DNA of 64,000 nucleotides from Gammaproteobacteria bacterium (lineage in GTDB: Bacteria > Pseudomonadota > Gammaproteobacteria > Eutrophobiales > Eutrophobiaceae), in NCBI GenBank assembly GCA_047517145.1, contig JAKZTI010000009.1:818-64817 (forward strand), given 5' to 3'. The notes under the pieces were generated by a model. It saw nothing but the letters and a program-made list of their open reading frames with translations, was not told the origin of the DNA and did not search any database. Position numbers and translations under genes: made by a program. Position 1 is the stretch's first letter; the number at the start of each line of letters is the position of its first letter. Shown one piece after another: positions 9,944 to 61,211 of this stretch.

Positions 9944-10011
9944 CACCTGTCCACCCCTAGTATTACTGTTAATATTATTCGCAGTCATCATCATGCCACC
10001 CCAGATTCTAA

Positions 10012-10581
10012 TCATTCTATTTCAACCAGCGCAATTGCTGCCTGACGTTCTTCCCAGCGTCCCTGACTATTCCTGACGATCTCCCTGACCTCTATCCTGT
10101 CTTCAAAAACATTCAGCACTTTTCCTGTATTACGTCCCATATAATTTCCAACGCGGATCCTATGTACAGCACCATCAGGATCCTGAATAATTCCCCAATT
10201 GGTTTCTCCATTATCCATCGTGCCAACCATACGCAGACTGTCCAGTTCGTATTGCTCTAGCTCTTCCTTGTTCCGGTTCCTTAACTCGTCTTCCATTTCT
10301 TTTGTTAAACCACCACTTTCACTTTCTTCTGCCAGCGATACTTCATCAGCCTGGTAAAAAAGTCTAAACGGATCACGTGCATCCTGTTCTGCAGATTGAT
10401 AGGCATATGCCTCATAGGGCTTAATCTCAGGTAAAGGCTCAATTCTGCCTCCCGGTCTCGCCAATATTTCTGCTATGTAGTTATCCAAATCGCTGGTATC
10501 AGTCGAAACACAGCTACCCAAAACCAGAAAGGTAGACACCAGGCCTGTTATCCAAATGACCTTCATACGAAACACAGCCAT
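10012..10581 (-). CDS. pilP: type IV pilus assembly lipoprotein PilP
   Basis: 189 aa with a lipoprotein signal (LVLGSC). Position and size match PilP; the TAATG overlap with the pilO stop suggests translational coupling; GGAGG SD 7 nt upstream. Confidence 0.85.
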   Translation of the reverse strand: MAVFRMKVIWITGLVSTFLVLGSCVSTDTSDLDNYIAEILARPGGRIEPLPEIKPYEAYAYQSAEQDARDPFRLFYQADEVSLAEESESGGLTKEMEDELRNRNKEELEQYELDSLRMVGTMDNGETNWGIIQDPDGAVHRIRVGNYMGRNTGKVLNVFEDRIEVREIVRNSQGRWEERQAAIALVEIE

Positions 10582-11183
10582 TATGATTCCTCCTCGTCTT
10601 CGTCCAAAGCTCGGTAAGTCTTGGCTGTTGCTGTCATGATCAGCGAACCTTTTTTATTATCTTTCGCTGATTTTGTGATATTGATATCATGAGTTGTCAC
10701 AATTCTGGGTAATGTTGCTATGCCACTGACAAATTCACCGAACTGATGGTATTCACCGACAACCCGAATGGAGATTGGCAACTCTGAATAAAATTCAGCA
10801 GGTTTTTCCTTGCCAGGCTTGAATAGCTCAAAGACCAGCCCTGCAGCAAGCCCTGTTTGTGATATATCAACAATAAGACCTGCAACTTCCGTTTTATCCG
10901 GCAACTGTCTAATCATGTCACCAAACGATTGTTTCATTTCAGCCAGTTGTTCTTTCAGTGCTTCCAGGTTGGCTGCTTTTCTTTGCTTGGTATCAAGGGT
11001 TTGCCTTAACTCAACCTCTTCATTTTCTACCTTCTCGAGTTCCTGTAGTTGTAGCTGCACATCTTTAAGCCAGACACCGTATGCGATACCAGCACAAACC
11101 AAAACAATAATAACGGCTCTTATAGGTAGCGGCCAGGCACCAATATTCTGCGGGTCAAGACTATTGAGTTCATCTAAGGTCAT
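10581..11183 (-). CDS. pilO: type IV pilus assembly protein PilO
   Basis: 200 aa with a single N-terminal TM segment and a coiled coil. Lies in the conserved pilMNOPQ order; start overlaps the pilN stop (ATGA). Confidence 0.85.
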   Translation of the reverse strand: MTLDELNSLDPQNIGAWPLPIRAVIIVLVCAGIAYGVWLKDVQLQLQELEKVENEEVELRQTLDTKQRKAANLEALKEQLAEMKQSFGDMIRQLPDKTEVAGLIVDISQTGLAAGLVFELFKPGKEKPAEFYSELPISIRVVGEYHQFGEFVSGIATLPRIVTTHDINITKSAKDNKKGSLIMTATAKTYRALDEDEEES

Positions 11184-11752
11184 GTGTCATCCTCCTCTTC
11201 ACCAGCCGCTTTAGCTACAACCTGGTTAAAACGCATGGTGAAATTACTCACTCGCTGCCCCTGGGTATCTTTTGCCTCAATCACATCAAGCTGCGGATCC
11301 GCTAACCAATTAGAGGCTTCCAGTTTTCTCATAAACGATGAAACCCTGGCATTTGACTGGGCAACACCATTAATCGTGACTGTTTTACCCTTTTGAGTTA
11401 CAGATTTGAGGCTGACGCCTTCGGGTAAACTGGTAACCAGTTCATCAAAAAGGCGAACAATCAATGGACGGTTACCCTGTAATTGCTCAATGGCTTCAAT
11501 TCGTGCTTTTAATCTTTGTTTTTCTTTTTCGAGACGTTGTATCTCTTCAATTTTCTTATCTAGCTTAACAATTTCAGTATCAAGAGTAGTATTTCGTGAT
11601 AGCTGATAATCGATTCGCTGAGTATTGAAAAAATGAACTGCGCCCCAGACACAAAGCGTTAAAACGACGAACATTCCCACCATCGCATAAAATTGTTGCT
11701 GAAGCTCCTTGCGTAGCTCTTCTCTCCATGGCAGCAGATTAATTTTGGCCAT
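11180..11752 (-). CDS. pilN: type IV pilus assembly protein PilN
   Basis: 190 aa beginning MAKINLLPWRE, the characteristic PilN N-terminus, followed by a TM segment. Confidence 0.88.
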   Translation of the reverse strand: MAKINLLPWREELRKELQQQFYAMVGMFVVLTLCVWGAVHFFNTQRIDYQLSRNTTLDTEIVKLDKKIEEIQRLEKEKQRLKARIEAIEQLQGNRPLIVRLFDELVTSLPEGVSLKSVTQKGKTVTINGVAQSNARVSSFMRKLEASNWLADPQLDVIEAKDTQGQRVSNFTMRFNQVVAKAAGEEEDDT

Positions 11753-12813
11753 TAGTCAAAACTCCTCAGTGCTAATCCACAGGACACCATTAAAGATGGG
11801 GCATCATTACTCAACGCCTGTGCAGGTACCCTTGATGACAAAGACATATTTGCAAATGGATTTGCAATAATTGTTGGAACACCTACTGCTGCCTCAACAA
11901 TTTCTGCTATACCGGCGATAGATGCACAGCCACCCGCGAGTATCAGGTGATCAATTTGCGCAGTTGAGCTGGATGAAAAAAAGAATTGTTGTGCACGGCT
12001 GATTTGCTGAGCCATAGATTCCTTAAATGGCTCTAATACTTCCGGTTCATAGTTGTCTGGTAAACCACCTTGTTTTTTTGCCAAGCCTGCTTCTTCGAAA
12101 GAAAGCCCATATCGGCGCTGAATATCTTCGGTTAACTGGGCACCACCAAAGGCCTGCTCTCTGGAATAAATGATTTTCAGGTTTTCCAATACACTAAACG
12201 TGGTCACCGCAGAGCCTACATCGGCCACCGCAATTACTCGGCCTTCGCCACCGCCAAACAGATCCTCTGCCATCATGGCAACGGTATTTTCCAAAGCAAA
12301 GGCTTCAACATCGACAACCTTTGCCTCCAGACCGCCCACCTCCAGTGCAGCGATTCTCAAATCGACATTCTCACTTCTTGATGCTGCAAGCAGCACATCC
12401 ACTTGAGCCTCATTCCCTTCTGTTGGACCCATAATTTCAAAATCCATACTGACTTCTTCAAGCGGAAACGGAATATATTGATCAGCTTCCAGTTGTATTT
12501 GGCTTTCCATATCATCTTCAGATATATCTGCAGGCATGGTAATTACTTTGGTAATTACTGCAGAACCAGAAACTGCTGCTGCACCATCTTTGATACGCGA
12601 ACCAGATTTTTTTACAGCTTTACCGATTGCCTCTCCGACAGCATCTGTATCAGCAATATTTTTTTCTACAACAGAATTTGCAGGAAGTGGCTCAACAGAG
12701 TAACTTTCAATACGGTATTTGCCGCCGCCGCTCTTACTCAGTTCGAGTAATTTGATTGCAGTCGCAGTAATATCGATACCCAATAGTGGTTTAGACTTTT
12801 TCTTAAAGAACAC
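11752..12813 (-). CDS. pilM: type IV pilus assembly ATPase-like protein PilM (actin-like)
   Basis: 353 aa with the LLGIDI motif in the N-terminal actin-like fold. It is the first gene of the pilMNOPQ operon, divergent from ponA. Confidence 0.88.
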   Translation of the reverse strand: MFFKKKSKPLLGIDITATAIKLLELSKSGGGKYRIESYSVEPLPANSVVEKNIADTDAVGEAIGKAVKKSGSRIKDGAAAVSGSAVITKVITMPADISEDDMESQIQLEADQYIPFPLEEVSMDFEIMGPTEGNEAQVDVLLAASRSENVDLRIAALEVGGLEAKVVDVEAFALENTVAMMAEDLFGGGEGRVIAVADVGSAVTTFSVLENLKIIYSREQAFGGAQLTEDIQRRYGLSFEEAGLAKKQGGLPDNYEPEVLEPFKESMAQQISRAQQFFFSSSSTAQIDHLILAGGCASIAGIAEIVEAAVGVPTIIANPFANMSLSSRVPAQALSNDAPSLMVSCGLALRSFD

Positions 12814-26540: not shown

Positions 26541-26882
26541 CTATTCTTCTTCAGGGAGATCTTCTGGCAAAGAATAAGCAGATACACAATCAAGATTAGA
26601 CATATAAATCAGTCCGCCATGGGGCTTGTTTATCCCGACCTCATCATGGATAAATCCAAAAATCTCATCCGCATCTTCACTGGAAACTGTTACGGTTAAA
26701 ATCTCTTTTTCTGTTTGCTCACCAACACCTCTATATGCCAGCGGTGTTAATTTCCCCAATCCTCTTGCTGTATTAATATTGGCCGTGACAATACCCTTTT
26801 CTCCCTTGAGGGATTTAACAACATCAAAACAGATACCTTTGGGCAATATACAAGTAATCAATTTTTGATTGTTGATAAACAT
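26541..26882 (-). CDS. PII-like (GlnB-fold) small regulatory protein, copy 2
   Basis: 113 aa. A segment (KLITCILPKGICFDVVKSLKGEKGIVTANINTARGLG) resembles the PII N-terminal region. It is the last gene of a three-gene minus-strand operon. Confidence 0.6.
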   Translation of the reverse strand: MFINNQKLITCILPKGICFDVVKSLKGEKGIVTANINTARGLGKLTPLAYRGVGEQTEKEILTVTVSSEDADEIFGFIHDEVGINKPHGGLIYMSNLDCVSAYSLPEDLPEEE

Positions 26883-27280
26883 TACTGATTGCTCACTGCA
26901 GCAGATTTGGCACCAGCTTCTTCTTTTTCTAGTTTCTCGGCAATTTCTCTGGGTATGTATGTTGCCGCTTTGTCCAAAGGAGTTAAATAGATAAATCCCA
27001 TTCCCGGGGTATCAAGATTTCCAGCGATGTACATCCTTTCAAGAATTCTATCTGCTTGATCCTTTGCCACCACGACGTTGATCACTTCCTTATCAACTTC
27101 AATAGCCAGCGCGAGGATACCCAGCCGTTCCCTGACACCTTCCCCTCGTGCATAATGGACAGTTGCACCTTGCGCACCTGCCTCCTGTGCCGCTTTGACG
27201 ATGGTATCGGCAATTCCCCTTTGAACAATACATGTGATTAGTGAGACATCCGTTAATACCGTGACTTCTCTTTTGCTCAT
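26882..27280 (-). CDS. PII-like (GlnB-fold) nitrogen-regulatory-protein-family protein, copy 1
   Basis: 132 aa. The segment VSLITCIVQRGIADTIVKAAQEAGAQGATVHYARGEG resembles the GlnB KKIEAII...VGITGMTVTEVKGFG core. Its start overlaps the upstream membrane-protein gene. Confidence 0.65.
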   Translation of the reverse strand: MSKREVTVLTDVSLITCIVQRGIADTIVKAAQEAGAQGATVHYARGEGVRERLGILALAIEVDKEVINVVVAKDQADRILERMYIAGNLDTPGMGFIYLTPLDKAATYIPREIAEKLEKEEAGAKSAAVSNQ

Positions 27281-29052
27281 GTGACTGCTACCTCCACATT
27301 ATTATTGTCCTCAAGATCCTCTGCATGGTGTCTGCGATTAATCTTCCACTGTACCCATAATCCTGTAGATAACACCGCAATTATGGGGCAGATAGAGGCC
27401 ATAGATAAAATACCAAAGCCTTCGACAGAGCCCATGGCACTACCAAAGCCCAGTCCCATGGCCAAAACCAGGGGCACTGTGACGGGCCCCGTTGTCACTC
27501 CGGCACTATCCCAGGCAATATTTACAAATTCCTCCGTAGACAGAGAGGTCAATATCAATCCAAAGACATAGCCTGGCAAGAGTAAATAGGCGATGGGGAT
27601 ATCAAAGATAATTTTTAATACGCCGATCGCAATACCAAAAGCAACCCCGATAGAAACTGCATACATGAGCATGGATTTTTTAAACGCACTATTGGTGAGG
27701 TTTTCAACTGTTGTGCCCAATGCGTTCAGTGCCGGTTCAGCCAATGTTGCACCCAGGCCTAAAAACCATGCGAACAAGGCAGCAATTGAAATACCCATTG
27801 TTAGAGAATAAAGAGGCGAGTTCTCTACTAGCGCGATGTTGGTAAAAGCAGCCGGCACCAGACCACCCGATTGACCGCCCAGCTTTGCCAGGCCATAGCT
27901 CAGCCCAACATTAAAAACCACCATGCCAATAACACAGAGAGAAATACCATAAATTGTCATCGCCTTATTTTTTATTTTTTCATTGAGAATGAAATACATT
28001 ACAAGAATCAGAAATAATACCAGAGGAATAATCGCTCGCACTCCCAGTATTATCTCTTGCCATGGTGTCAGTTCATGCCAGGGAATAACATGGGCAGCGT
28101 TGTCAATTTGACTCGCACTTGCAATGATTGAATCAACGGATGTGGTTGAAGAGACAAATATTGCCAATATCATCACACCAATGATCGGAAATAATGAAGC
28201 AAGCGTCACAATCCCGAACCCGGACAATGACGAATGACCTTTCCCAGCAGACGATGCGATGCCTATCCCCAAAGAAAGCACCAATGGAACCGTAACCGGT
28301 CCGGTGGTGACAGCGCCACAATCCCAGGCAAGGCCTAAAACCTTGCTCAGCTCCGGATCGGTCATGATATAAAGTGTCAGACCGAGTGTTGGTATCATCG
28401 TACAATAAATAAAGGGTTTCAGGCTCCAGCCGTTGATAAAACGTAGCGTTCCAAGAACTGCTGCCAGACCAACGCCCATGCCAACGATTAATACCAACAC
28501 ACCAGACCATTCGTTGAGTAAGGTATATAAATAGGGCGCCTTAGCAACATCTACAATCGAACCGGCAGTTTTTAATGCGCCTATAGCCGGTTCAGCAAAT
28601 GTCACGCCTATCCCTAACAAGAAAGTAACCGTGAGAACCACGTATAGTGGGGATTTGGTGGGTAAAATATTGCCTATGGTTTCACCAAAGGGCATCAAAC
28701 CAACCTTCAGACCTTCCATGAACAGCATCAAGCCAATGATTACGGAGACCAACCCTGCCGTTATCACCCATGAATCTGTCAAATCCTGTCTTAAAATAAA
28801 GAGTTGAAACAAAATCAGATATAACGCTAAAGGTAAGACTGCCTTTATCTGATCATATAACCTGATACTGACATAAGGCTGGACCAGTCGGTATATATCT
28901 ATATTTCTTAATTTTAACTTTGGCGGGACATAGGGAATATCGTTGCCAGCAGAATCCTGCTTGATTTCGGGGGCGAGATCATTGTAGCTGATCAACTTCT
29001 GTTGAATCGTTATCTCTCGAATATAAGACCCAAATCGTATCTTCCTGTCCAC
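27277..29052 (-). CDS. polytopic membrane protein made of two tandem DUF1538-like repeats (putative transporter)
   Basis: 591 aa, highly hydrophobic. Two homologous halves each contain LAWDCGAVTTGPVTVPLVLSLGIG / IAWDSAGVTTGPVTVPLVLAMGLG and FAEPAIGALKTAG / LAEPALNALGTTV signatures. Confidence 0.7.
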   Translation of the reverse strand: MDRKIRFGSYIREITIQQKLISYNDLAPEIKQDSAGNDIPYVPPKLKLRNIDIYRLVQPYVSIRLYDQIKAVLPLALYLILFQLFILRQDLTDSWVITAGLVSVIIGLMLFMEGLKVGLMPFGETIGNILPTKSPLYVVLTVTFLLGIGVTFAEPAIGALKTAGSIVDVAKAPYLYTLLNEWSGVLVLIVGMGVGLAAVLGTLRFINGWSLKPFIYCTMIPTLGLTLYIMTDPELSKVLGLAWDCGAVTTGPVTVPLVLSLGIGIASSAGKGHSSLSGFGIVTLASLFPIIGVMILAIFVSSTTSVDSIIASASQIDNAAHVIPWHELTPWQEIILGVRAIIPLVLFLILVMYFILNEKIKNKAMTIYGISLCVIGMVVFNVGLSYGLAKLGGQSGGLVPAAFTNIALVENSPLYSLTMGISIAALFAWFLGLGATLAEPALNALGTTVENLTNSAFKKSMLMYAVSIGVAFGIAIGVLKIIFDIPIAYLLLPGYVFGLILTSLSTEEFVNIAWDSAGVTTGPVTVPLVLAMGLGFGSAMGSVEGFGILSMASICPIIAVLSTGLWVQWKINRRHHAEDLEDNNNVEVAVT

Positions 29053-29187
29053 TTAGCTATCCCCCACTAAACTGACACTTATCTATACAGAGCAACGGTA
29101 GTATAGTACCCCCTTTGATTATAGTTGACCTAAATAATTATACATTGATGGAGATCAAGCAAACCACTTTTTATGGGTGACCACATT

Positions 29188-29550
29188 TTAAGTAAACAAA
29201 ACACATCCCCAGACAAGCACTACATTAAGTAAAGCGATCAACACCGCCGCTGAACCAACATCTTTTGCCCGACCTGATAGCTGGTGATGCTCTCCTCCAA
29301 ATCTATCTACAACTGCTTCCATGCCAGAGTTAATCAATTCAGTAATCAACACCAGGACAATCACACTCACAAGCAGAGCAATTTCTACGCCAGTTTCTCC
29401 AAGATAAAAACCCAACGGGACAAGAATAATGGAAAGATATATTTCCTGTCTAAAGGCCGCTTCATTTTTGAAGGCGGCAGTCAGCCCTTGCATGGAAAAA
29501 CCAAGAGCCTTGAACAAACGTTCAAGGCCAGCAGTTCCCTGTGAAGACAT
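29188..29550 (-). CDS. dgkA: diacylglycerol kinase
   Basis: 120 aa with three TM segments and conserved DgkA residues (...EAVVDRFGGEHHQLSGRAKD...). Confidence 0.88.
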   Translation of the reverse strand: MSSQGTAGLERLFKALGFSMQGLTAAFKNEAAFRQEIYLSIILVPLGFYLGETGVEIALLVSVIVLVLITELINSGMEAVVDRFGGEHHQLSGRAKDVGSAAVLIALLNVVLVWGCVLFT

Positions 29551-29598
29551 GGTGTTGAATTAATATTTTTTAATCGGAATGTTCTTACAATAAGGCCG

Positions 29599-30096
29599 TC
29601 ACAATAAAGCAAGAGCAGCGTTGTAATTTGGCTCGTCGGCAATTTCGGAAACCAACTCTGTATGTATCACCTTGTCATTCTCATCTATGACAACAATGGC
29701 ACGTGCAGTAATCCCCGCCAGTGGGCCATCTTCAATCAACACGCCATAATCTTTTGCAAATTTACGTGAGCGCATCATTGAAAGCGATACAACATTTTCA
29801 GTGCCTTCTGCTGAACAAAAACGTGACATGGCAAAGGGAAGATCTGCAGAAATCATCAGGAAGACAGTGCCTTCTCTGCTCGCAGCCGAATCATTAAACT
29901 TTTTTGTCGATAAAGCGCAAGTGGGGGTATCAAGACTGGGAACGATATTCAGTAATTTTTTTTTACCACTGTAGTTGTCCAGGCCAATATCAGCCAGCTC
30001 ACTATTCACCAACGAGAAGGCGGGCGCCTGTTCACCAATAGCAGGCAAATCTCCGTTGGTATTTATTTCATTCCCATGCAAGGTTATTTTAGCCAT
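29599..30096 (-). CDS. tpx: thiol peroxidase (atypical 2-Cys peroxiredoxin)
   Basis: 165 aa with the Tpx active site (VPSLDTPTCA) and a resolving Cys further downstream. Confidence 0.9.
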   Translation of the reverse strand: MAKITLHGNEINTNGDLPAIGEQAPAFSLVNSELADIGLDNYSGKKKLLNIVPSLDTPTCALSTKKFNDSAASREGTVFLMISADLPFAMSRFCSAEGTENVVSLSMMRSRKFAKDYGVLIEDGPLAGITARAIVVIDENDKVIHTELVSEIADEPNYNAALALL

Positions 30097-30140
30097 TTCA
30101 GTTTCCTCTATCCTGTAATGTAATTCTTACGGCATTAGTA

Positions 30141-30166
30141 TACCCAAACTACCCGGAAATGCAGGT
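30141..30166 (+). repeat. 26-bp dispersed motif, copy 1 (TACCCAAACTACCCGGAAATGCAGGT)
   Basis: Near-identical copies occur at 52036-52061 and 56141-56166. This copy lies 45 bp upstream of the minus-strand tpx start. Confidence 0.7.
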
Positions 30167-30206
30167 AATTCGGGTATGGACATAAGGAACTACGAGATCA
30201 TCTGTT

Positions 30207-30929
30207 TTATCTGTATTTGTACCACATCCAGACACCGCTCATGGCCAACAGTAAAAATAATACCGCCATAAAATCAACCAGCAATACACCTGCCTGTCCC
30301 AGTATCCTGCCACTGTGAATATCAATAATCACTCTTTCCAGTGGCAACCCTTTACCACGATAAAGCGTTAGTAACTGTTCATTTAATTTATTTGGTATTT
30401 CATCGGGGACCGACCAGCTAACGACCAGTTCTTTTTGTTCCTGCCATTCTGTAGTATCAAGATCAGCAATGTAATCACCATGCGCTGCCTTGATAACGAT
30501 ATCTCCTCTACTGGACAAACCAATTGATTTTATACCTGCAGGGACACCTTCGCTTCCTGATAATCTTTCGACAATTTCTCCGGATTGAGTCAGAATTAAT
30601 AAACTTCCATCCAATGCAACGACAAAGCTATCACTACTACGAATTGCTCCGTATAAATCTTCAATATGATCTGCAAGCTCAATCTGATCAAAATATAAAC
30701 GACCATCGATTTGGGTAAGCCAATGCTGATCTACCTTGAAACCTTTCATCTGACCTTTAGGTTGAATGCTATACCACTCAAGAAGTTTCTCGCTTTGAAC
30801 AAAAATATTTTGTAAGTTTAACTTATCAGTATGATTCAATAGCAGTCCAGTAACGACGAGCAGCATGACAAAAAATGCAGCAGTAATACCCACCTTTCTG
30901 TGCCATTTATGAATAAAAGCCCACATCAT
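30207..30929 (-). CDS. PepSY-associated TM-helix membrane protein
   Basis: 240 aa with an N-terminal TM segment (HKWHRKVGITAAFFVMLLVVTGLLLNH), a periplasmic domain and a C-terminal TM segment. It is the last gene of the porin/FMN-binding/PepSY operon. Confidence 0.65.
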   Translation of the reverse strand: MMWAFIHKWHRKVGITAAFFVMLLVVTGLLLNHTDKLNLQNIFVQSEKLLEWYSIQPKGQMKGFKVDQHWLTQIDGRLYFDQIELADHIEDLYGAIRSSDSFVVALDGSLLILTQSGEIVERLSGSEGVPAGIKSIGLSSRGDIVIKAAHGDYIADLDTTEWQEQKELVVSWSVPDEIPNKLNEQLLTLYRGKGLPLERVIIDIHSGRILGQAGVLLVDFMAVLFLLLAMSGVWMWYKYR

Positions 30930-30965
30930 ATTTTCACTATAATCCCACCCAATTTTTACCTGATG

Positions 30966-31502
30966 TTATTTTCCTGACTCTTCAACTTCTTGATGCAACA
31001 ATAAGGCAAGCCGCGCCATTTTTTTCATCGCATTGACGGAAAGTGTGGCACCCGATATCCCATCGATATGCCTGTCTAGTTGTTTGTCTTCTTTAAGTGT
31101 CGCATCACTGAATTGATCAGTAAAAAATGGGTAACGTACCTCCCAACCCCGACTCTCACGGAAAACCAGCACATTGAGGCTTTCGATCTTGTTGTTATTA
31201 ACAACTATGCCTGCGGTAATGGGCCTTTCCTTACCAATCTCTTCAAGTATCCAGGCAGTGCGCCCTGCTTTTTCCCAGTATTTTAATCTAAGTACACCGA
31301 GGTCATGCTCCATGATCTCATATATTTTCATTTTAAGATCTTTCTTAATCCAGATTTTACTGACCTTCGGCGCATCACCGGAAAATACCTCCTGAATAAA
31401 CTCTGACGGTTCCTGATAAGTCCCCCTTGCATTAACACACATCGCCATGCCTAATATCACAGGCAAAATCAAATACTGACTAAACAATTTAACTGTCATC
31501 AT
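30966..31502 (-). CDS. secreted FMN-binding-domain protein (FMN_bind; predicted covalent flavinylation site)
   Basis: Signal peptide (MMTVKLFSQYLILPVILGMAMCVNA) and a C-terminal DGISGATLS motif, as in NqrC/RnfG FMN_bind domains. Start set to the ATG at 31502, not the GTG at 31538. Confidence 0.65.
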   Translation of the reverse strand: MMTVKLFSQYLILPVILGMAMCVNARGTYQEPSEFIQEVFSGDAPKVSKIWIKKDLKMKIYEIMEHDLGVLRLKYWEKAGRTAWILEEIGKERPITAGIVVNNNKIESLNVLVFRESRGWEVRYPFFTDQFSDATLKEDKQLDRHIDGISGATLSVNAMKKMARLALLLHQEVEESGK

Positions 31503-31627
31503 TCTATATTTTGTGTCCATTGATACTTTAACATGCACCTAACTATAAAATTTGTAACCATTTAACGTAAAACGCAAGACACCTCCGCAAGGAGGTGTCT
31601 TGATATTCTCTTGCCACTTTAACTTAC

Positions 31628-32962
31628 CTAGAACTGATACCCAAGACCCAGATTAAATCCATCTAGTAATTTATCGGCACGACTATCTCCACTTTCATTT
31701 TGATAATCAAACTTGAATACAACATTGGAATGTGGCCACCAGTTCAAACCTGCTTTCCATCTCTCAAACTGAACATAGGTACCATCTGGCACCATCCCTT
31801 GACCCCTGGCATCCCATTCCGAATAACGCGCAAAGACACCAAGCTCACCGGGAATAATACCTGGTGATCTGAAACGGTACGCAGGTTCTATATACCAACC
31901 GTCGATACTGTCCTGTGTGAAGGTTATCCCGGTTGGCACATCCATATCCCAACGCGCATACAAACCACGAAAGCCTAGACCACTGGAATGTTTATAGTCT
32001 ACATGCCCTTCAAACAAGGTTGCATCCACATTGAAAGCATCTGCAGTACCCGTCATGTCCGCTTGATATTGACCCGATATTCCGACTTCCAGGCCAGGCA
32101 TACCTGTATAACGAATACTACCAGTAAAGGCGATATCCTGATCATCAGCATTTCCAACTTTAAGTCGTCCACTTCTTGGTCTTAATGTTGATGAACCGGT
32201 AGTTGGTGTGACCAAACCACTATGGGCAACAACATCATAATTCCATCCCGGCGCGATCTCACCGTTAAATCCAGCGCCTGCTTCCCACCATGTGGCTGGA
32301 ATAATCTCCGCCTCTACAGTATTACGTTCAACCCCATAGAACGTATTAGGCTCATGGGTTCTATTAATGATCCCTATAGGAAGGATATCCAGCCCCCCCC
32401 GGAAACGGTGATGGTCGTTGATGTCCATTTCAATCCATGCCTGTTCCAATTCTACTTCGCCCGGTTGACCGTCACCAGATATGGCATGTTCCACTTCCAG
32501 TTCAGAAAAGAATCGAATGTTGTCGTTAAACTCGTGACCAAAATATAATACGAAGCGATGAAAATCGACACGATCAAGAGAATTATCACCACCTACCGTA
32601 TCATTATTATCACTCAAATTATTATAATGTAATTCACCATAACCACCGATACTGGTTTTGTCCCACCAGCCACTTCCGCTTGATGAAGATGCTGATTCGA
32701 ATGCCTCGGTCGCAGCTTCAACTTCCTCCGCGTTTTCTTCTACCTTTTCTTCATTAACAGCAACACGTTGATCAGTTTCATCGAGTCTTGCTTTAAGTTC
32801 ATCAATAACCTGTTGTTGTTGTTGAATCATCTCCCACATTTCTTCAGCGGAAGGCGGTTTAGCAAAACTGGATTGAACTCCAGTCATTAAGCTTAGAGTT
32901 AAAACACACGGGATAGTGGAATGAAGATTTATTTTTCGATGGTTTACAACAAAAGATCGCAT
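31628..32962 (-). CDS. outer-membrane beta-barrel porin with an N-terminal coiled-coil extension
   Basis: 444 aa with a signal peptide and a Gln/Glu-rich coiled coil, then alternating aromatic beta-strand pattern. It has a C-terminal Phe (…LGLGYQF), as in outer-membrane proteins. Confidence 0.7.
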   Translation of the reverse strand: MRSFVVNHRKINLHSTIPCVLTLSLMTGVQSSFAKPPSAEEMWEMIQQQQQVIDELKARLDETDQRVAVNEEKVEENAEEVEAATEAFESASSSSGSGWWDKTSIGGYGELHYNNLSDNNDTVGGDNSLDRVDFHRFVLYFGHEFNDNIRFFSELEVEHAISGDGQPGEVELEQAWIEMDINDHHRFRGGLDILPIGIINRTHEPNTFYGVERNTVEAEIIPATWWEAGAGFNGEIAPGWNYDVVAHSGLVTPTTGSSTLRPRSGRLKVGNADDQDIAFTGSIRYTGMPGLEVGISGQYQADMTGTADAFNVDATLFEGHVDYKHSSGLGFRGLYARWDMDVPTGITFTQDSIDGWYIEPAYRFRSPGIIPGELGVFARYSEWDARGQGMVPDGTYVQFERWKAGLNWWPHSNVVFKFDYQNESGDSRADKLLDGFNLGLGYQF

Positions 32963-33034
32963 GGCGGCTCCTCCACAGATGGCTTACAAGTAATGACGCA
33001 GCACAGCATATACAGATCACTATGTAATGTAAAT

Positions 33035-33053
33035 GATAATTATTCTCATTATC
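33035..33053. promoter_or_regulatory. putative Fur box
   Basis: GATAATTATTCTCATTATC matches the 19-bp consensus GATAATGATAATCATTATC at 16 of 19 positions. It is embedded in a longer AATGATAAT...ATTATCATTAT run, about 75 bp upstream of the porin start. Confidence 0.6.
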
Positions 33054-33181
33054 ATTATGGGGCCTAGATGTCTGATTAAACACAAGCTATCTATCTGATT
33101 TTTATGGTTTTTGATCGCTTATGATCATATGATGATCAGTATTGATTTGAGTACTAACAGCAAAGCTATAAGGAGAATGTA

Positions 33182-42540: not shown

Positions 42541-43440
42541 ATGAAACAAGCGTTAATGTTCAGTTCATTGGTTCTATTTATTTTCTCTAGTCACGCTTAC
42601 GCCGGTGATACGGCTGCCGAGGATGTTGCCGGGAAAACAACTTATGACAGTACTTGTATTGCCTGTCATGGCTCCGGCCTTCCGGGTATTCCACAATTAG
42701 GTGATGCTGCTGCATGGGCTCCACGTATTGAACAAGGAAATGACACGCTCTATAAACATGCGATATCCGGCTACACTGGCTCATCAGGCATGCCAATGCC
42801 TGCCAAAGGCGGTAATCCGGATCTCAGTGATGATGATGTTAAAGCAGCTGTAGATTATATGGTAACGAATAGTCAGGGCAACTCGACTGTAGCAAGTAAC
42901 CAGATGGCGCCGGCCGGAAATGAAAAAACAAAGACATGTGCAGCTTGTCATGGGGTCGACGGTAATAGTGTCAACCCTGTCTGGCCTAAATTAGCAGGTC
43001 AGCACGCGGAATATATCTTTAAGCAGCTAAAAGATTTTCATTCAGGATCACGCAAGAATGTTCAAATGAGTCCTCTTGCTGCTCCGCTCAGCGAGGAAGA
43101 CATGCAGGATATCGCCACCTATTACTCTTCGCAGAAAATAAAGATTGGACATGCCAGTGCTGAAACACTTCCACTGGGTGAACAAATATATCGTGCAGGT
43201 GATGCCAGCAAAGGACTCCCGGCATGTTTGGCTTGTCATGGCCCCAGTGGTGCTGGCAATCCAGCGGCATCATATCCAGCCTTAAGTGGTCAGCATGCTG
43301 AATACACAAAATTACAATTGCTGGCTTTTCGGGATAACATACGTACCAACGATTCCAACAAAGTTATGCAGATAGTCTCGGAAAAAATGACCACGGATGA
43401 AATTGATGCCGTTGCCAATTATATTCAAGGTTTACATTAA
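42541..43440 (+). CDS. triheme c-type cytochrome: N-terminal cytochrome c5 domain fused to diheme cytochrome c4
   Basis: 299 aa with a signal peptide and three CxxCH sites (CIACH, CAACH, CLACH). The first module has c5 signatures (LPGIPQLGDAAAWAPRIEQG...MPAKGGNPDLSDDDVKAAVDYMV). The C-terminal 190 aa is c4-like and ends ...ANYIQGLH. No signal peptide or stop codon separates the modules. Confidence 0.85.
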   Translation: MKQALMFSSLVLFIFSSHAYAGDTAAEDVAGKTTYDSTCIACHGSGLPGIPQLGDAAAWAPRIEQGNDTLYKHAISGYTGSSGMPMPAKGGNPDLSDDDVKAAVDYMVTNSQGNSTVASNQMAPAGNEKTKTCAACHGVDGNSVNPVWPKLAGQHAEYIFKQLKDFHSGSRKNVQMSPLAAPLSEEDMQDIATYYSSQKIKIGHASAETLPLGEQIYRAGDASKGLPACLACHGPSGAGNPAASYPALSGQHAEYTKLQLLAFRDNIRTNDSNKVMQIVSEKMTTDEIDAVANYIQGLH

Positions 43441-43518
43441 TCTGCTTGTAGGTTTGTCCTGAAATATCAAATGCATTGCTATCAATACGGAATGTCTGAA
43501 TATTAATTCTTCAGACAC

Positions 43519-45498
43519 TTGTTTTACGTGAAAAGTTTAGCCAGTATTTTCTTTCGTTTCCTGGGTTCAATGAACCTGGCTATCACTTTACTTGTGGCCG
43601 TTGCCCTGTCTTCGGTCATAGGTACGCTACTTAAGCAAAACGAATCCTATCAAAGCTACATCATAAAATTCGGCCCTTTCTGGCATGAAGTGTATTTATC
43701 ACTTGGGCTGTACGATGTTTATAGTAGCGCATGGTTTATCGGCATCCTGTCTTTTCTGGTTATCACAACCAGCATCTGCATCACGCAAAATGGCCCAGGT
43801 ATTCTGCGTAGCATGCAACGATTCAAAGAGCTCATTTCGGCACGGTCCTTGAGGACAATGAAGCAACATGAAGAATGGCGCTGTGATATGGATATAGATA
43901 AGGCATACAAAGGCCTGTGTTATTTTTTTAAAAAATCAGGCTATCGAGTGCGAACACGTGAAAATGAACAAGGCTACACCCTCGCTGCCATGCATGGCGC
44001 GAGCAATCGGCTTGGCTATATCCTGACGCATGTCGCTATCGTCGTCATCTGCCTGGGAGGATTAATCGATGGCAATCTTCCTTTAAAGGTTAAAACACTG
44101 ACAGGCCAATTAAGAATTGAAAAAGATAATAATGCCCGCGTCTCAGAGATCCCCGATGCTAGCATATTGAGCATTGACAATCCTTCTTTCAGGGCAAGTG
44201 TCACTATTCCTGAAGGCAAGACAGTAAGTGTTGCTTTTCAGAATATTGCCGATGGTTATCTGGTACAAAGACTGCCTTTTTCAATCGAGGTAGTAGATTT
44301 TCGTATTGAACATTATGAAAGTGGCCAACCGAAATCATTTGAAAGCGATCTCATCATCCATGACCCGGAAGCAGATGCGCGCATCACCGAAACAATATCA
44401 GTCAACCACCCTTTGAGTTACAAAGGTTATACAATTTATCAGGCGAGCTTCACAGATGGCGGCTCACAGCTCGATATGCTGCTGCATCAACTGCGTAATA
44501 ATGAAGTAAGTTCGCTTGAAATCAGTGGCCGTATCAACGAGACATTATCTATCAATACCAATAACGATCCGATCACGCTCGAGCTTGATGAATTTCGTTT
44601 ATTCAACATTTTCCCTGTTGCCGAAGATGAGGCTACAGATAAAAAATTCAGGGATCAGGGCCCAAATTTTACATTTAAATTAAGAAAACAGGATGGCAGT
44701 GCCGTTGAGTTTGTTAATTATATGCAGCCATTAATGATTAATAGCAGAAAATATTTTTTGAGTGGCATGCGTACGACACCTGCAGATGAATTCAAGTATC
44801 TACATATCCCTGCAGATAATGCTGATTCACCTCAGCGCTTCCTGAAATTTCAGGCATTGCTGAGAGACGACGAAAACATCCTACAAGCCGCCAGAACTAT
44901 TGCCAAAAGAGAAAATATTCTGGAATCAAATGAAGAATTTCTTGGCGCGACCAAAACACTTGTTGAATTATTTTTATCAGGCGGGTTTGAAAGTATTCAA
45001 AATCATCTGCAAGCAAATGTGCCAGAAAAAGAACAAGCCGAAGTCTCCGAGATTTATATGAAGATGTTACAGAACACTCTGCAGCAAGTATTTGTCGATA
45101 TGCTGATAACCGAGGGAGTTCAGAACACGGATGAAGTGAGTCAAAATGAAACCCGGTTTTTCCAGGATACAGTACTCGCGCTATCTGCCTTACCATTCTA
45201 TCAATCACCTTTTTATCTGGAACTGAGAAATTTTGAACACAAACAAGCAACTGGTTTACAGATCACCAGGACGCCAGGAAAAATTTATGTGTATATCGGC
45301 TTTGCCATGCTGATTACTGGTGTTTTTCTGTTATTTTACGTTTCCCACCAACGAGTCTGGGTCATCCTGGAAAGACATGACAACAGCACTCGACTGCTAA
45401 TTGCAGGGAATGCAAACCGTCATAAAACTGAATTTTCCGAAAAATTTAGAGAAATGACTGGCATAATAAAAGGTGAACTAAAACCGATAGATAGTTAA
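43519..45498 (+). CDS. ccsB: cytochrome c biogenesis protein ResB/CcsB (system II)
   Basis: 659 aa with an N-terminal TM segment (…AITLLVAVALSSVIGTLLKQNE), a large periplasmic domain and C-terminal TM segments. Confidence 0.88.
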   Translation: MFYVKSLASIFFRFLGSMNLAITLLVAVALSSVIGTLLKQNESYQSYIIKFGPFWHEVYLSLGLYDVYSSAWFIGILSFLVITTSICITQNGPGILRSMQRFKELISARSLRTMKQHEEWRCDMDIDKAYKGLCYFFKKSGYRVRTRENEQGYTLAAMHGASNRLGYILTHVAIVVICLGGLIDGNLPLKVKTLTGQLRIEKDNNARVSEIPDASILSIDNPSFRASVTIPEGKTVSVAFQNIADGYLVQRLPFSIEVVDFRIEHYESGQPKSFESDLIIHDPEADARITETISVNHPLSYKGYTIYQASFTDGGSQLDMLLHQLRNNEVSSLEISGRINETLSINTNNDPITLELDEFRLFNIFPVAEDEATDKKFRDQGPNFTFKLRKQDGSAVEFVNYMQPLMINSRKYFLSGMRTTPADEFKYLHIPADNADSPQRFLKFQALLRDDENILQAARTIAKRENILESNEEFLGATKTLVELFLSGGFESIQNHLQANVPEKEQAEVSEIYMKMLQNTLQQVFVDMLITEGVQNTDEVSQNETRFFQDTVLALSALPFYQSPFYLELRNFEHKQATGLQITRTPGKIYVYIGFAMLITGVFLLFYVSHQRVWVILERHDNSTRLLIAGNANRHKTEFSEKFREMTGIIKGELKPIDS

Positions 45499-45576
45499 GC
45501 TTCTCGAATGCAACAAATTTCAGGTTTACGCATCAAACGGATAACTCATTACAGTTAAATTAATACAAAGGCATAA

Positions 45577-46749
45577 ATGGCAAGCGATACTCTTTTTAAA
45601 AACACCGGTAGAAACTATTGGCTAGAGCAATTAACACCCATCAGCATGTTGTGGGTCTTATTGCTGTTGGCAGGAACTGCTTTCGCGGCCAGTCAATACC
45701 AACACAATATGGACGCCTATGAATTAGGTATCCTCATAAGTGCAGGAATTGTATTCAGTTTTCTTGGTCTGTCCTGGCGCCCTATACAAGGCCTCATCAT
45801 GGTCGTTTCTCTTTTAAGTCTCTGCAGCATTTCGTTATATGGTGCTAACCTGGAGGCATCCGAACAGAATTTCTTTCTAAGATTTTTACTCTCCAGTCAA
45901 TCAGCAATCATGTGGATGAGTGCACTGTATGTTATGGCAACAGTGGCATACCTTGGAAATCTCTTGTCAGGTTCCAGCTTCACGGGAAAAGTCGCGACCG
46001 CTTTTACCTGGTCTGCAACCATCATGGGGCTAACCGGATTACTGGTTCGTTGGCGCGAATCCTATTTGATGAGCCCGGACATCGGCCATATACCCGTCAG
46101 TAATCTGTATGAAGTCTTTATCCTGTTTTGTTTGATTACTGGCCTGGTTTATCTCTATTACGAAAATAAATTTAGAACACGAAGCATGGGAACTTTTGTG
46201 CTCCTGGTCATCAGTGCTGCAGTCGGCTTTCTGCTTTGGTATACATTTTCAAAAGGTGCCAACGAAATTCAGCCACTGGTACCTGCGCTAAAAAGCTATT
46301 GGATGAAAATCCATGTGCCTGCAAATTTTATTGGCTATGGTTGTTTCAGCCTCTCAGCCATGTTGGGGACAGCCTATTTAGTTAGAAATTTTATAGAACG
46401 TAAGGCACCAGGCTCATTCATCCTCTCTCGTCTGCCGTCTTATGATTTGCTTGATGATGTGATGTATAAATCCATCGCACTAGGTTTTGCCTTTTTCACC
46501 ATCGCAACCATCCTCGGTGCCTTATGGGCAGCAGAGGCATGGGGAGGTTACTGGTCATGGGATCCAAAAGAGACCTGGGCACTTATTGTCTGGTTAAATT
46601 ACGCTGCCTGGTTACATATGCGCATGACCAAAGGCTGGAAAGGCACACCTATGGCATGGTGGTCTATCATTGGTCTATTCGTGACATTATTCGCTTTCCT
46701 CGGTGTTAATATGTTTTTATCCGGTTTACATTCCTACGGTGAATTATAA
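45577..46749 (+). CDS. ccsA: cytochrome c biogenesis protein CcsA/ResC (system II heme-handling)
   Basis: 390 aa, polytopic, with a WWD-type heme-binding motif (WGGYWSWDPKETW). Confidence 0.9.
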   Translation: MASDTLFKNTGRNYWLEQLTPISMLWVLLLLAGTAFAASQYQHNMDAYELGILISAGIVFSFLGLSWRPIQGLIMVVSLLSLCSISLYGANLEASEQNFFLRFLLSSQSAIMWMSALYVMATVAYLGNLLSGSSFTGKVATAFTWSATIMGLTGLLVRWRESYLMSPDIGHIPVSNLYEVFILFCLITGLVYLYYENKFRTRSMGTFVLLVISAAVGFLLWYTFSKGANEIQPLVPALKSYWMKIHVPANFIGYGCFSLSAMLGTAYLVRNFIERKAPGSFILSRLPSYDLLDDVMYKSIALGFAFFTIATILGALWAAEAWGGYWSWDPKETWALIVWLNYAAWLHMRMTKGWKGTPMAWWSIIGLFVTLFAFLGVNMFLSGLHSYGEL

Positions 46750-46777
46750 TTCACTCCATTTCAAGGGTCTTAGATAC

Positions 46778-47521
46778 ATGAGTAAAAAATCACTTTGGAC
46801 ACAATTAACCAGTATTATTCTGCTTGCTACTCTCAGCTTGCTTTCAGCTTGTTCTGATGCTGAAGAAAATCTATCTAAAAACAATATTGAGGCAGTTCCT
46901 GCGATACAAGAGCAGGCTGCAACGTTAGCTCCAGCTAAACAGACAAAGGTAGTATTGAAAAATGTCACTGGCCTCTATAAAGAACTTCCCTCCGTACAGC
47001 CGACCAGGACAGGCGATAAGATAGAAGTCCTGGAAGTCTTCTGGTATGGCTGTCCCCATTGTTATCATTTTGAACCGGTAATTGAAAAATGGCTCGAAGA
47101 AAAGGCTGAGTACATTGAGTTTGTTCGTATGCCAGGTATTCTGGGCAAAAACTGGTTGCCCCATGCCAGGGCTTTTTATGCAGCAGAGAAATTAGGCATC
47201 CTTGATATAATTCATAAACCTTTGTTTGATGCGATAAACAAAGATAAAAGAAAAATCCTTGATGAAAAGAGCCTCAGGGTGTTCTTCTCAGAACATGGTG
47301 TCAGTGGTGATGAATTTGACCAGGCCTACAACTCAAGGGAAGTCGAAGAAAAAGTCAGAGCAGCCTTTACAGCAGGACAGGGTTATGCGCTAACAGGCGT
47401 TCCAGCCATCATTATCAACGGTAAATATACGACAAGTGCATCAATGGCAGGTAGCTTTGAAAAAATTATTGATGTGATAAACACCCTGGCAGCAAAAGAA
47501 TATAAAAAATTAAATGAATAA
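46778..47521 (+). CDS. dsbA: thiol:disulfide interchange protein, DsbA family, lipoprotein-anchored
   Basis: Lipobox (LLSAC) and a CPHC active site (VFWYGCPHCYHFEP). The position after cc4-resB-ccsA matches the Pseudomonas cc4-dsbA neighbourhood. Start set to the ATG at 46778. Confidence 0.82.
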   Translation: MSKKSLWTQLTSIILLATLSLLSACSDAEENLSKNNIEAVPAIQEQAATLAPAKQTKVVLKNVTGLYKELPSVQPTRTGDKIEVLEVFWYGCPHCYHFEPVIEKWLEEKAEYIEFVRMPGILGKNWLPHARAFYAAEKLGILDIIHKPLFDAINKDKRKILDEKSLRVFFSEHGVSGDEFDQAYNSREVEEKVRAAFTAGQGYALTGVPAIIINGKYTTSASMAGSFEKIIDVINTLAAKEYKKLNE

Positions 47522-59216: not shown

Positions 59217-60185
59217 ATGGCATTTGCAATTATGAATAGCGCACAGCTAGACACAGCAGTCACAAACACCAAAGAAACCCTGGACAACATTGTCGAAGAG
59301 ATTGGTCGTGTCATTCTTGGTAAAGAACAGGCCATACGTTTATCACTTACCTGTCTACTCGCTCGTGGTCATCTACTGATCGAAGATTTGCCTGGCCTAG
59401 GTAAAACCACATTATCACATGTGCTTGCCAGTACCCTGGGACTAGATTATCAGCGCATTCAGTTCACCAGTGATCTCTTGCCCGCGGATATTCTGGGTAT
59501 TTCAATCTATGATCGAGACTCTAGCTCCTTCAGTTTTCATCCTGGCCCAATCTTTAATCAGTTAATTCTTGCTGATGAAGTTAACCGTGCAACGCCGAGA
59601 GCACAAAGCGCCTTGCTTGAAGCCATGGAAGAAAGTCAGGTCACTGTAGAAGGAAAAACACGCGCCTTGCCAGAACCATTCTTTGTGATTGCTACGCAAA
59701 ACCCTTCAAATCAAGTGGGGACATTCCCCTTACCAGAATCACAACTGGATCGATTCACCATGCGTATCAAGTTAGGTTACCCAAACAACGAAGCTGAACG
59801 AGAATTATTGAAAGGCAGCGATCGCCGACAACTGCTAAAGCGCATTAAGCCGACGATAGGTTCAGTGCAATTAATAGCGATGCAACAACAAGCAGAATCC
59901 ATTCATGTTGCAGAGGCATTACTGGATTATTTACAGGATTTGCTGGATTACAGTCGGCGCAGTGCTGATTATACCAATGGGCTTTCTCCACGCGCCGGTC
60001 TGGCAGTGCTTCGATGTGCCAGGGCATGGGCGTTGATACATGGTCATCCACAAGTACTGCCGGAAGACATACAACAGGTCTTACCTAGCATCATCAGTCA
60101 CCGACTCAATAGTGTTCATGATAATGGACAGCTAACACAGGAAGACAATGCTACTCACCTAATCAAACAAGTGCCTATCCCCTGA
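59217..60185 (+). CDS. moxR: MoxR-family AAA+ ATPase
   Basis: 322 aa with Walker A (PGLGKT) and Walker B (LADEVNRA) motifs. Confidence 0.88.
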   Translation: MAFAIMNSAQLDTAVTNTKETLDNIVEEIGRVILGKEQAIRLSLTCLLARGHLLIEDLPGLGKTTLSHVLASTLGLDYQRIQFTSDLLPADILGISIYDRDSSSFSFHPGPIFNQLILADEVNRATPRAQSALLEAMEESQVTVEGKTRALPEPFFVIATQNPSNQVGTFPLPESQLDRFTMRIKLGYPNNEAERELLKGSDRRQLLKRIKPTIGSVQLIAMQQQAESIHVAEALLDYLQDLLDYSRRSADYTNGLSPRAGLAVLRCARAWALIHGHPQVLPEDIQQVLPSIISHRLNSVHDNGQLTQEDNATHLIKQVPIP

Positions 60186-61201: not shown

Positions 61202-61211
61202 TTCTACCCTG

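Follow-up and report, generated by a model that had tools for sequence, protein, structure and literature searches.

Organization of the locus

Within a 64,000-nucleotide stretch of contig JAKZTI010000009.1 from a Gammaproteobacteria bacterium (hereafter the window), three consecutive genes of the minus strand encode an outer-membrane porin, a secreted protein with a flavin mononucleotide (FMN)-binding domain of the FMN_bind family, and a small inner-membrane protein of the PepSY_TM type. A Fur box lies upstream of the porin gene, and a hairpin separates the porin gene from the other two. A preliminary description of this DNA had taken the three genes for an iron-regulated operon and had proposed that they form a reductive iron-uptake system. 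The elements of the locus are listed here from upstream to downstream.

33035-33053, minus strand: Fur box (19-mer), 17/19 matches to the consensus GATAATGATAATCATTATC on the gene strand
33005-33033, minus strand: sigma-70-like promoter, TTTACA-17 nt-TATGCT, 9/12, predicted by consensus scan alone
31628-32962, minus strand: outer-membrane porin, 444 residues (Pfam Porin_O_P, PF07396, 28.9 bits for a cut-off of 20.9)
31575-31602, minus strand: GC-rich hairpin of the porin-FMN_bind intergenic region (12-bp stem, 4-nt loop), with CGUUUUACG after it
31542-31571, minus strand: promoter-like site downstream of the hairpin, TTTACG-18 nt-TATAGT, 9/12, predicted by consensus scan alone
30966-31538, minus strand: secreted FMN_bind protein, 190 residues from a GTG codon (Pfam FMN_bind, PF04205, 37.9 bits for a cut-off of 22)
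30207-30929, minus strand: inner-membrane PepSY_TM-type protein with two transmembrane (TM) helices, 240 residues (PepSY_TM, 44.5 bits for a cut-off of 28.8; PepSY_TM_like_2, 36.6 bits for a cut-off of 27)

All three proteins pass the curated Pfam thresholds in hidden Markov model searches, and the porin and FMN_bind assignments of the preliminary description are thereby upheld. No NCBIfam equivalog was found for the porin, the FMN_bind protein or the PepSY_TM protein.

A Fur box precedes the porin gene

Read on the plus strand, the Fur box has the sequence GATAATTATTCTCATTATC and matches the consensus at 16 of 19 positions, the figure given originally; its reverse complement on the gene strand, GATAATGAGAATAATTATC, matches at 17 of 19. 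The box region (33032-33056) contains a perfect 9-nt inverted repeat, AATGATAAT-N7-ATTATCATT, and the run of GATAAT-like hexamers reported around the box is indeed present (CATAAT GATAAT GAGAAT AATTAT CATTTA). Two sites with at most three mismatches to the consensus were found in the whole window, against 0.05 expected from shuffles. The second of these sites (55748-55766, with three mismatches whichever strand is read) falls within the coding sequence of uvrD and is probably a chance match.

The porin gene and lemA diverge from a shared intergenic region of 219 bp. The Fur box is located there, 73-91 nt ahead of the ATG of the porin gene (32962), close to the 75 bp or so estimated beforehand. 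The -35-like TTTACA of the predicted promoter is only 2 nt from the edge of the box. The -35 and -10 elements of this promoter are kept in the alignment with two related loci, L006 and L008, together with a GGAGG Shine-Dalgarno sequence. An assignment of the box to lemA as its operator was rejected, since the box remains with the porin gene, about 97 bp ahead of it, in loci where bfr and bfd sit between lemA and the porin gene. The same intergenic region carries a palindrome distinct from the Fur box, CTTATGATCATATGATGATCAG, at 33118-33139, which is also kept in L006 and L008 (alignment columns 52-68). It may be an operator for lemA or for a second regulator.

Fur boxes recur upstream of the orthologous porin genes. 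Of 67 distinct orthologous loci, 32 have a match with at most five mismatches in the 350 bp ahead of the porin start, whereas the same scan gave 26 hits in 670 random windows and 17 in 670 shuffles (about 3-4%). The usual position of these boxes is 40-140 bp ahead of the porin gene, and GCAAATGATAATGATTTGC is a frequent variant. When whole loci were scanned at a limit of four mismatches, 39 sites were obtained, of which 14 fell within 200 bp upstream of the porin gene; most of the others were located upstream of bfr/bfd, futA or feoA. The site originally described is thus real, and it is conserved.

Conservation of the three genes

The order porin, FMN_bind, PepSY_TM on one strand was observed in 78 of the 84 loci that were fetched, and the PepSY_TM gene follows the FMN_bind gene in 83 of them. 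Once protein identity falls below about 55%, the genes flanking the trio are entirely different. Since the trio is kept while its flanks change, selection rather than inherited synteny must hold the three genes together. The co-occurrence of the trio in other genomes, which the preliminary description had left to be examined, is therefore that of a conserved unit.

The distribution of this unit is wide. A word-index search with the FMN_bind protein returned over 5000 relatives, almost all of them metagenomic, and a scan of one genome per species found an FMN_bind orthologue in at least 513 genomes. Among the matches listed, the carriers are all metagenome-assembled genomes or single-cell assemblies, mostly labelled Gammaproteobacteria; the labels include Thiotrichaceae, Thiogranum, Thiohalobacterales, Chromatiales and Ca. 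Eutrophobius.

Iron genes adjoin the trio in related loci

At least one gene for iron storage or transport is present within 7 kb of the trio in 34 of 80 loci. Bacterioferritin adjoins the trio in 17 non-redundant loci. In five loci feoA and feoB lie directly upstream of the trio, on the same strand and behind a Fur box (for example AATAATGATAATAATTATCATTG in locus L078). In 13 loci the gene directly downstream of the trio encodes a ferric-binding protein of the FutA/FbpA type, with E values of 1.7e-96 to 6g7n, 3e-95 to FutA1 of Synechocystis and 4e-82 to FbpA; it is followed by genes for a double-domain permease and an ABC ATPase. An assignment of this transporter to the 2-aminoethylphosphonate/polyamine type was discarded, because the NCBIfam matches were far below their cut-offs and the comparison with PDB structures shows a FutA/FbpA-like protein. 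Finally, permeases of the FecCD type are found nearby in seven loci.

A hairpin between the porin and FMN_bind genes

The three-gene operon claimed in the preliminary description agrees with the common strand and the conserved order of the genes, but a terminator-like hairpin stands between the porin and FMN_bind genes. The 89-nt intergenic region that contains it folds at -26.6 kcal/mol (z -4.19). Hairpins followed by a T-run occur at the same position in 32 of 74 distinct loci; the antisense strand gave 7 of 74, and the shuffles 18 of 1480. These hairpins are unrelated in sequence; their recurrence at the same place, well above the controls, therefore indicates that the element is selected for. 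Loci L013, L023, L029 and L033 contain AT-rich palindromes, for instance GAATTATCGTTTAACGATAATATC, after the stop codon of the porin gene and ahead of the terminator-like hairpin; by the 19-mer they are poor Fur boxes. A scan of positions 29000-34000 against Rfam gave nothing credible, and no FMN riboswitch.

The closest relatives are organized differently. In loci L005-L008, whose porins are 72-78% identical to the one studied here, only 15 nt separate the porin and FMN_bind genes and there is no hairpin, so that co-transcription of the two genes is the simplest reading there. The FMN_bind and PepSY_TM genes are 36 nt apart in the window. In most loci they overlap by 4, 14 or 20 nt (median gap -4), which on sequence grounds indicates translational coupling in most relatives.

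The possibility that the FMN_bind and PepSY_TM genes have a Fur box of their own was rejected, as none was found in any of 62 porin-FMN_bind intergenic regions: the best match had at least seven mismatches in all of them, as in shuffles. The promoter-like site downstream of the hairpin belongs to a class of sites no more numerous in this region than in shuffles.

These observations bear on an alternative in which the locus consists of two units. Fur would control the porin alone, as the gene of a general or anion channel induced by iron starvation and with its own terminator. The FMN_bind and PepSY_TM genes would have a separate promoter, and their products would form an electron-transfer pair, acting for instance in copper reduction, as proposed for CrpH, or in periplasmic redox maintenance together with the thiol peroxidase Tpx. 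Such a division would account for the strong hairpin and its T-run, here and in the related loci, for the promoter-like site that follows, and for the lack of a Fur box in front of FMN_bind. It would also agree with the link of one PepSY_TM subfamily, CrpH, to copper rather than to iron, and with the recurrence of tpx among the neighbours (30 of 80 loci). Against it speak the persistence of the porin gene beside the pair while the surroundings change, the short gap and missing hairpin of L005-L008, and the nature of the neighbouring genes, which are iron genes and not genes for copper or for cytochrome oxidase assembly. We regard a locus of two independent units as quite unlikely.

The simplest reading is that the trio forms a single Fur-controlled unit, in which the hairpin would act as a partial terminator or as a stabilizer of the messenger RNA and would maintain a high ratio of porin to reductase. 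The recurrence of a hairpin inside the cluster suggests a built-in means of making much more porin than reductase.

The secreted flavoprotein

Comparison with orthologues suggests that the real start of the FMN_bind gene is likely the ATG at 31520, which would give a protein of 184 residues. Weak RnfG matches were obtained in NCBIfam over the same domain. By inspection, the N-terminal hydrophobic segment ending in VNA/RG is a signal peptide, and a conserved cleavage motif of the AxA type is present ahead of the mature N-terminus, YQEP, in 34 orthologues. The motif DGISGATLS occupies residues D159-S167. In the alignment of the same 34 orthologues, which reaches down to 54% identity, D159, G163, A164 and T165 are invariant; the motif I-D-G-I-S-G-A-T-L-S is shared by all of them, as are the blocks WILEEIGK, FRESRGWE and PFFTDQF, all of them invariant. 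The domain, the signal peptide and the motif were thus correctly recognized in the preliminary description.

The target of the flavin transferase ApbE is [S/T]GA[S/T], with the last Thr or Ser as the flavin acceptor (PMC8238504). The sequence S162-G-A-T165 fits this target, and T165 is the predicted acceptor of a covalently bound FMN. Comparison of the FMN_bind profile with the PDB revealed no relative, only matches at chance level (for example to sigma-70 region 4) with E values above 0.05. One protein of 319 residues, P0052, looked like an FMN_bind fusion but proved to be an assembly duplication. In locus L085, from a 1.72-Mb contig of a relative, the FMN_bind gene (L085 9474-9988) was called as two fragments of 56 and 38 residues; this is probably a long-read frameshift, not a pseudogene.

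The membrane protein resembles half of FoxB

The match of the membrane protein to PF03929 runs over positions 176-294 of the 295 in the model, its second half. In the AlphaFold model (predicted local distance difference test, pLDDT, 88.5) the two TM helices span residues 2-32 and 212-239, and an all-β domain of 13 strands is inserted between them. The periplasmic domain, at about residues 60-175, is β-propeller-like and does not have the α/β PepSY fold. The small two-TM PepSY protein of the preliminary description is therefore borne out as to its family match and its helices, but not as to a PepSY fold in the periplasm. A profile of the protein recovered 1052 clusters (at 50% identity) with E values of at most 1e-30, all of about 240-270 residues and matched from end to end.

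The conserved residues of the family are grouped at the two membrane faces. W9-H10-R11 marks the cytoplasmic end of TM1 and H33 its periplasmic end, while D203-x-H205-S-G-R208 stands ahead of TM2. Of these residues, H10/R11 and H205/R208 show little or no variation. A search of the PDB with the single sequence gave no matches, and the family profile gave a sole match, FoxB (7abw), with an E value of 9e-5. In this alignment residues 5-36 fall on TM1 of FoxB and residues 198-239 on its TM4, and H10/R11 and H205/R208 are aligned with H9/R10 and H339/R342 of FoxB. The cytoplasmic haem of FoxB has H9 as a ligand, and its propionates are bound by R10; R342, located after H339, binds a propionate of the periplasmic haem.

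The chain has only two helices and thus does not hold the bundle of four TM helices with two His per haem. As each chain offers one His per haem site, a homodimer would be needed for a di-haem bundle. We infer that such a homodimer would rebuild the four-helix di-haem bundle and possibly a six-bladed propeller, and that this half of a FoxB probably works as a dimer.

The resemblance to FoxB leads to a second alternative, a reductase of ferric siderophores or chelates of the FoxB/HiuB kind. Fe(III) bound in a small organic complex, for example with citrate or with a small xenosiderophore, would pass through the porin, the propeller would bind the ligand and the flavoprotein would be accessory. 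The haem motifs are homologous to those of FoxB, in hiuABC as in foxAB Fur controls an importer of the outer membrane together with a PepSY_TM reductase, and the FecCD-type permeases found near the trio in seven loci would find a role. Against these likenesses, no TonB-dependent receptor adjoins the trio in any recurrent arrangement, and the periplasmic domain is unlike the PepSY cavity that binds ferrioxamine in FoxB. Moreover, a 16-strand porin excludes most siderophores. On balance, chelate reduction of this kind seems improbable to us as the function of the locus.

The porin

The porin was modelled (AlphaFold2, AF2) with a signal peptide, a helix of about 50 residues (39-88) and 16 strands, at a mean pLDDT of 63.7. 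The top Foldseek matches are OprO (4rjx/4rjw) and OprP (2o4v), with E values of about 1e-10 and 13-15% identity. A PDB search with the single sequence gave no matches, and the porin profile gave marginal matches to OmpX only.

The helix supports the N-terminal periplasmic coiled coil ascribed to the porin in the preliminary description. All of its heptad a positions are hydrophobic (A39, I46, I53, L60, V67, V74, V81, F88), and the d positions include Q, T and N. Hydrophobic a positions combined with partly polar d positions are typical of trimeric coiled coils, and this would suit a trimeric porin.

The best-conserved segment of the porin is a long loop, residues 193-226, with the sequence THEPNTFYGVERN.VE.EIIPATWWE and a mean column identity of 91%. 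The invariant residues of the barrel comprise nine of its 11 His, 16 Glu, 13 Asp and 12 Arg; the barrel has five Lys in total, of which one is invariant. This composition is unlike that of the OprP anion filter and suggests a channel that would interact with cations or metals; it argues against a putative Arg ladder and Lys cluster for phosphate selectivity.

A model for reductive iron acquisition

We consider it probable that the trio is a Fur-repressed envelope module for siderophore-independent, reductive acquisition of iron, a function predicted from its sequence and context. The iron-uptake reading is strengthened by the conservation of the Fur box, by the iron genes of the neighbourhoods, where feoAB stands in the same Fur-controlled string, and by the homology of the haem motifs to those of known ferric reductases such as FoxB. 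The conserved trio, the recurrent Fur boxes and the feoAB, FutABC and bacterioferritin neighbours therefore lend weight to the reductive iron-uptake system proposed in the preliminary description, the general idea of which, a Fur-regulated PepSY-like protein and a flavinylated periplasmic partner acting in assimilatory iron reduction, had already been put forward on bioinformatic grounds (PMC8238504).

The module would operate as follows. When iron is scarce, Fur would be released from an operator at the predicted -35 region, and transcription of the porin gene would be strong. A fraction of the transcripts would read through the hairpin into the FMN_bind and PepSY_TM genes. The porin would form a trimeric, 16-strand channel of the OprO/OprP type with a constriction loop unusually rich in His and Glu, and with a trimeric coiled-coil stalk extending into the periplasm, and would let small iron species cross the outer membrane without TonB. 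A dimer of the two-TM protein would assemble a FoxB-like four-helix bundle with two b-haems, the cytoplasmic one held by H10/H10' and the periplasmic one by H205/H205'. This haem bundle would pass electrons outward from a cytoplasmic or quinol donor. The soluble FMN_bind protein, with FMN covalently attached to Thr165 by an ApbE encoded elsewhere, would take up these electrons and reduce Fe(III) in the periplasm. The iron would then be imported by FeoAB or by a FutABC-type transporter.

Several points weigh against this model. About half of the orthologous loci have no Fur box recognizable by the E. coli/Pseudomonas consensus. It is possible that the hairpin is a full terminator and that the FMN_bind and PepSY_TM genes are expressed from a separate constitutive promoter; the promoter-like site sits just after the hairpin. 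As the pair has no Fur box of its own, its control by iron would depend on a putative read-through of the hairpin. With one His per haem in each protomer, haem binding by the membrane protein would hinge on the putative dimer. The porin has a modest Pfam score and a medium-confidence AF2 model. As the preliminary description had stated, ApbE is lacking from the 64-kb window (37 scanned open reading frames), and it is also absent from the 45 most recurrent families of neighbouring genes. The window likewise holds no electron donor, and no iron transporter among the same 37 open reading frames. Finally, FutABC carries Fe(III), and where it adjoins the trio a reduction is not obviously needed.

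In a third alternative, the components are the same but electrons flow in the opposite direction. Fe(II) would enter through the porin and be oxidized by the flavoprotein and the haem protein, the electrons would go to the quinone pool, and Fe(III) would be handed to FutA/FbpA, by the logic of the oxidase-permease systems of the Ftr/Efe type. The Fe(III) transporter of the FutABC type is the most frequent transporter neighbour, directly downstream in its 13 loci, and many of the carriers are, by the titles of their records, sulfur-oxidizing or sediment Gammaproteobacteria that are likely to meet Fe(II). The acidic, His-rich and conserved constriction loop of the porin would also suit a cation. 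All characterized PepSY_TM proteins, however, act as reductases, and the sharing of a strand and a Fur box between feoAB, the importer of Fe(II), and the trio in five loci fits Fe(II) as the product. In addition, the potentials of flavins and b-haems are ill suited to the oxidation of Fe(II) at neutral pH. We judge this reversal to be very unlikely.

The reductive model can also be carried further, to a single trans-envelope machine. The stalk of the porin would reach down to the dimeric di-haem unit, whose two half-propellers would join into one six-bladed propeller; the flavoprotein would be docked between this unit and the porin, and iron entering the His/Glu-lined channel would be reduced and handed directly to FeoB or FutABC. 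This elaboration we hold to be unlikely. If true, it would constitute a high-affinity iron pathway independent of TonB and siderophores, the proteobacterial counterpart of the reductive Fe' uptake of marine microbes, used by hundreds of uncultured sulfur-oxidizing and sediment Gammaproteobacteria.

Other features of the window

The genes around the trio in the window comprise the following.

29599-30096, minus strand: thiol peroxidase Tpx, adjoining the trio downstream (NCBIfam thiol peroxidase, 229 bits)
33182-34725: a gene pair divergent from the porin gene, for LemA and for a GIDE-like membrane protein (weak EF-hand match)
26541-29052: a DUF1538 membrane protein of 591 residues, followed by two small open reading frames of the same strand (132 and 113 residues)
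42541-47521: a multi-haem cytochrome c (299 residues, three Cytochrom_C matches), followed by ResB/CcsB, CcsA and a DsbA-like protein with a thioredoxin fold
7876-12813: a type IV pilus cluster led by pilM
59217-63221: a MoxR-DUF58-TgpA (transglutaminase-like) cluster

In 30 of the 80 loci the tpx gene is no more than 7 kb away from the trio, in at least four gene arrangements. Tpx may guard against Fenton chemistry driven by Fe(II) in the periplasm, or its presence may be a coincidence; its membership of the module is uncertain. The LemA protein also matches the magnetosome protein MamQ at 74 bits, far below the cut-off, and the pair of lemA and GIDE-like genes remains syntenic in relatives down to about 55% identity. 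The DUF1538 gene and the two open reading frames after it are syntenic in close relatives. The genes at 42541-47521 are a system II cytochrome c maturation cluster. In the pilus cluster, pilM itself (11752-12813) was among the scanned open reading frames, and those downstream of it resemble pilNOPQ by size and order. The pilus and MoxR-DUF58-TgpA clusters are ordinary housekeeping context.

Comparison with known systems

How bacteria without siderophores gain iron from seawater and sediment is poorly resolved: the reduction of Fe(III) in the periplasm or at the cell surface has been inferred physiologically, and the proteins are mostly unknown. The trio, present in at least 513 species-level genomes, is a candidate set that would comprise a channel, an electron conduit and a flavin reductase. 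A two-TM protein that needs an oligomer to bind haem would be the smallest PepSY_TM unit and would clarify the evolution and working of this family, and a Fur-controlled porin of the OprO/P type with a stalk and a His/Glu-rich constriction would exemplify a metal-dedicated porin. The concept is the same as in the reductive iron uptake of cyanobacteria, which employs porins, FutA2, FeoB and a membrane reductase, although that reductase is of a different kind.

The porin can be compared with OprP and OprO of Pseudomonas (2o4v, 4rjw), porins selective for phosphate and pyrophosphate. It shares with them a Porin_O_P match above threshold and a predicted 16-strand barrel, and they are its best structural matches. 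At 13-15% identity, however, it differs from them by its coiled-coil stalk of about 50 residues, by a Fur box in place of a Pho box, and by a barrel with nine invariant His, many invariant Glu and Asp and five Lys, one of them invariant, that gives no suggestion of a filter built from an Arg ladder and a Lys cluster.

The membrane protein is closest to FoxB of P. aeruginosa (7abw), which with HiuB, FpvG and FsrB represents the PepSY_TM di-haem reductases of ferric siderophores. The WH-R and H-x-G-R motifs align with the haem ligands of FoxB, and in the FoxB-type systems, too, Fur is the regulator and the gene of an outer-membrane importer lies alongside. FoxB combines four TM helices and two α/β PepSY domains in one chain of 382 residues, and its partner is a TonB-dependent receptor. 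The protein described here, in contrast, is a chain of two TM helices with a propeller-like domain and a single His for each haem site; its partners are a porin and a flavoprotein, and its match to FoxB is weak (E 9e-5). FoxB, HiuB and VciB are all ferric reductases of the PepSY type. VciB of V. cholerae, an iron-regulated inner-membrane protein that reduces periplasmic Fe(III) for Feo and Fbp without a siderophore, is alike in concept; it differs in being reported without flavinylation partners.

The nearest precedent for the locus as a whole is the class of PepSY-like flavinylated systems (Meheust et al. 2021, eLife, PMC8238504), for which a role in assimilatory iron reduction has been proposed and, in Shewanella and Caulobacter, repression by Fur has been reported. 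These systems were defined operationally by a PF03929 or PF16357 gene within five genes of a gene for a secreted FMN-binding protein, a DUF2271 protein or ApbE (PMC8238504). The locus falls under this definition, its PepSY_TM gene adjoining that of a protein with a signal peptide and an [S/T]GA[S/T] motif. The clusters described typically combine ApbE with a flavinylated DUF2271 protein and a DUF4198 protein, whereas none of these was found among the scanned open reading frames of the window or among the recurrent neighbours. In the present locus the flavoprotein is of the FMN_bind type, a porin of the OprO/P type is the third conserved member (porins are unmentioned in PMC8238504), the membrane protein is a two-TM half unit with a propeller-like domain, and a hairpin is present inside the cluster. 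A literature search for the combination of porin, FMN_bind and PepSY_TM genes retrieved no paper that describes it. The trio is thus an undescribed variant of a computationally predicted class of PepSY-like flavinylated systems, and not a wholly new concept.

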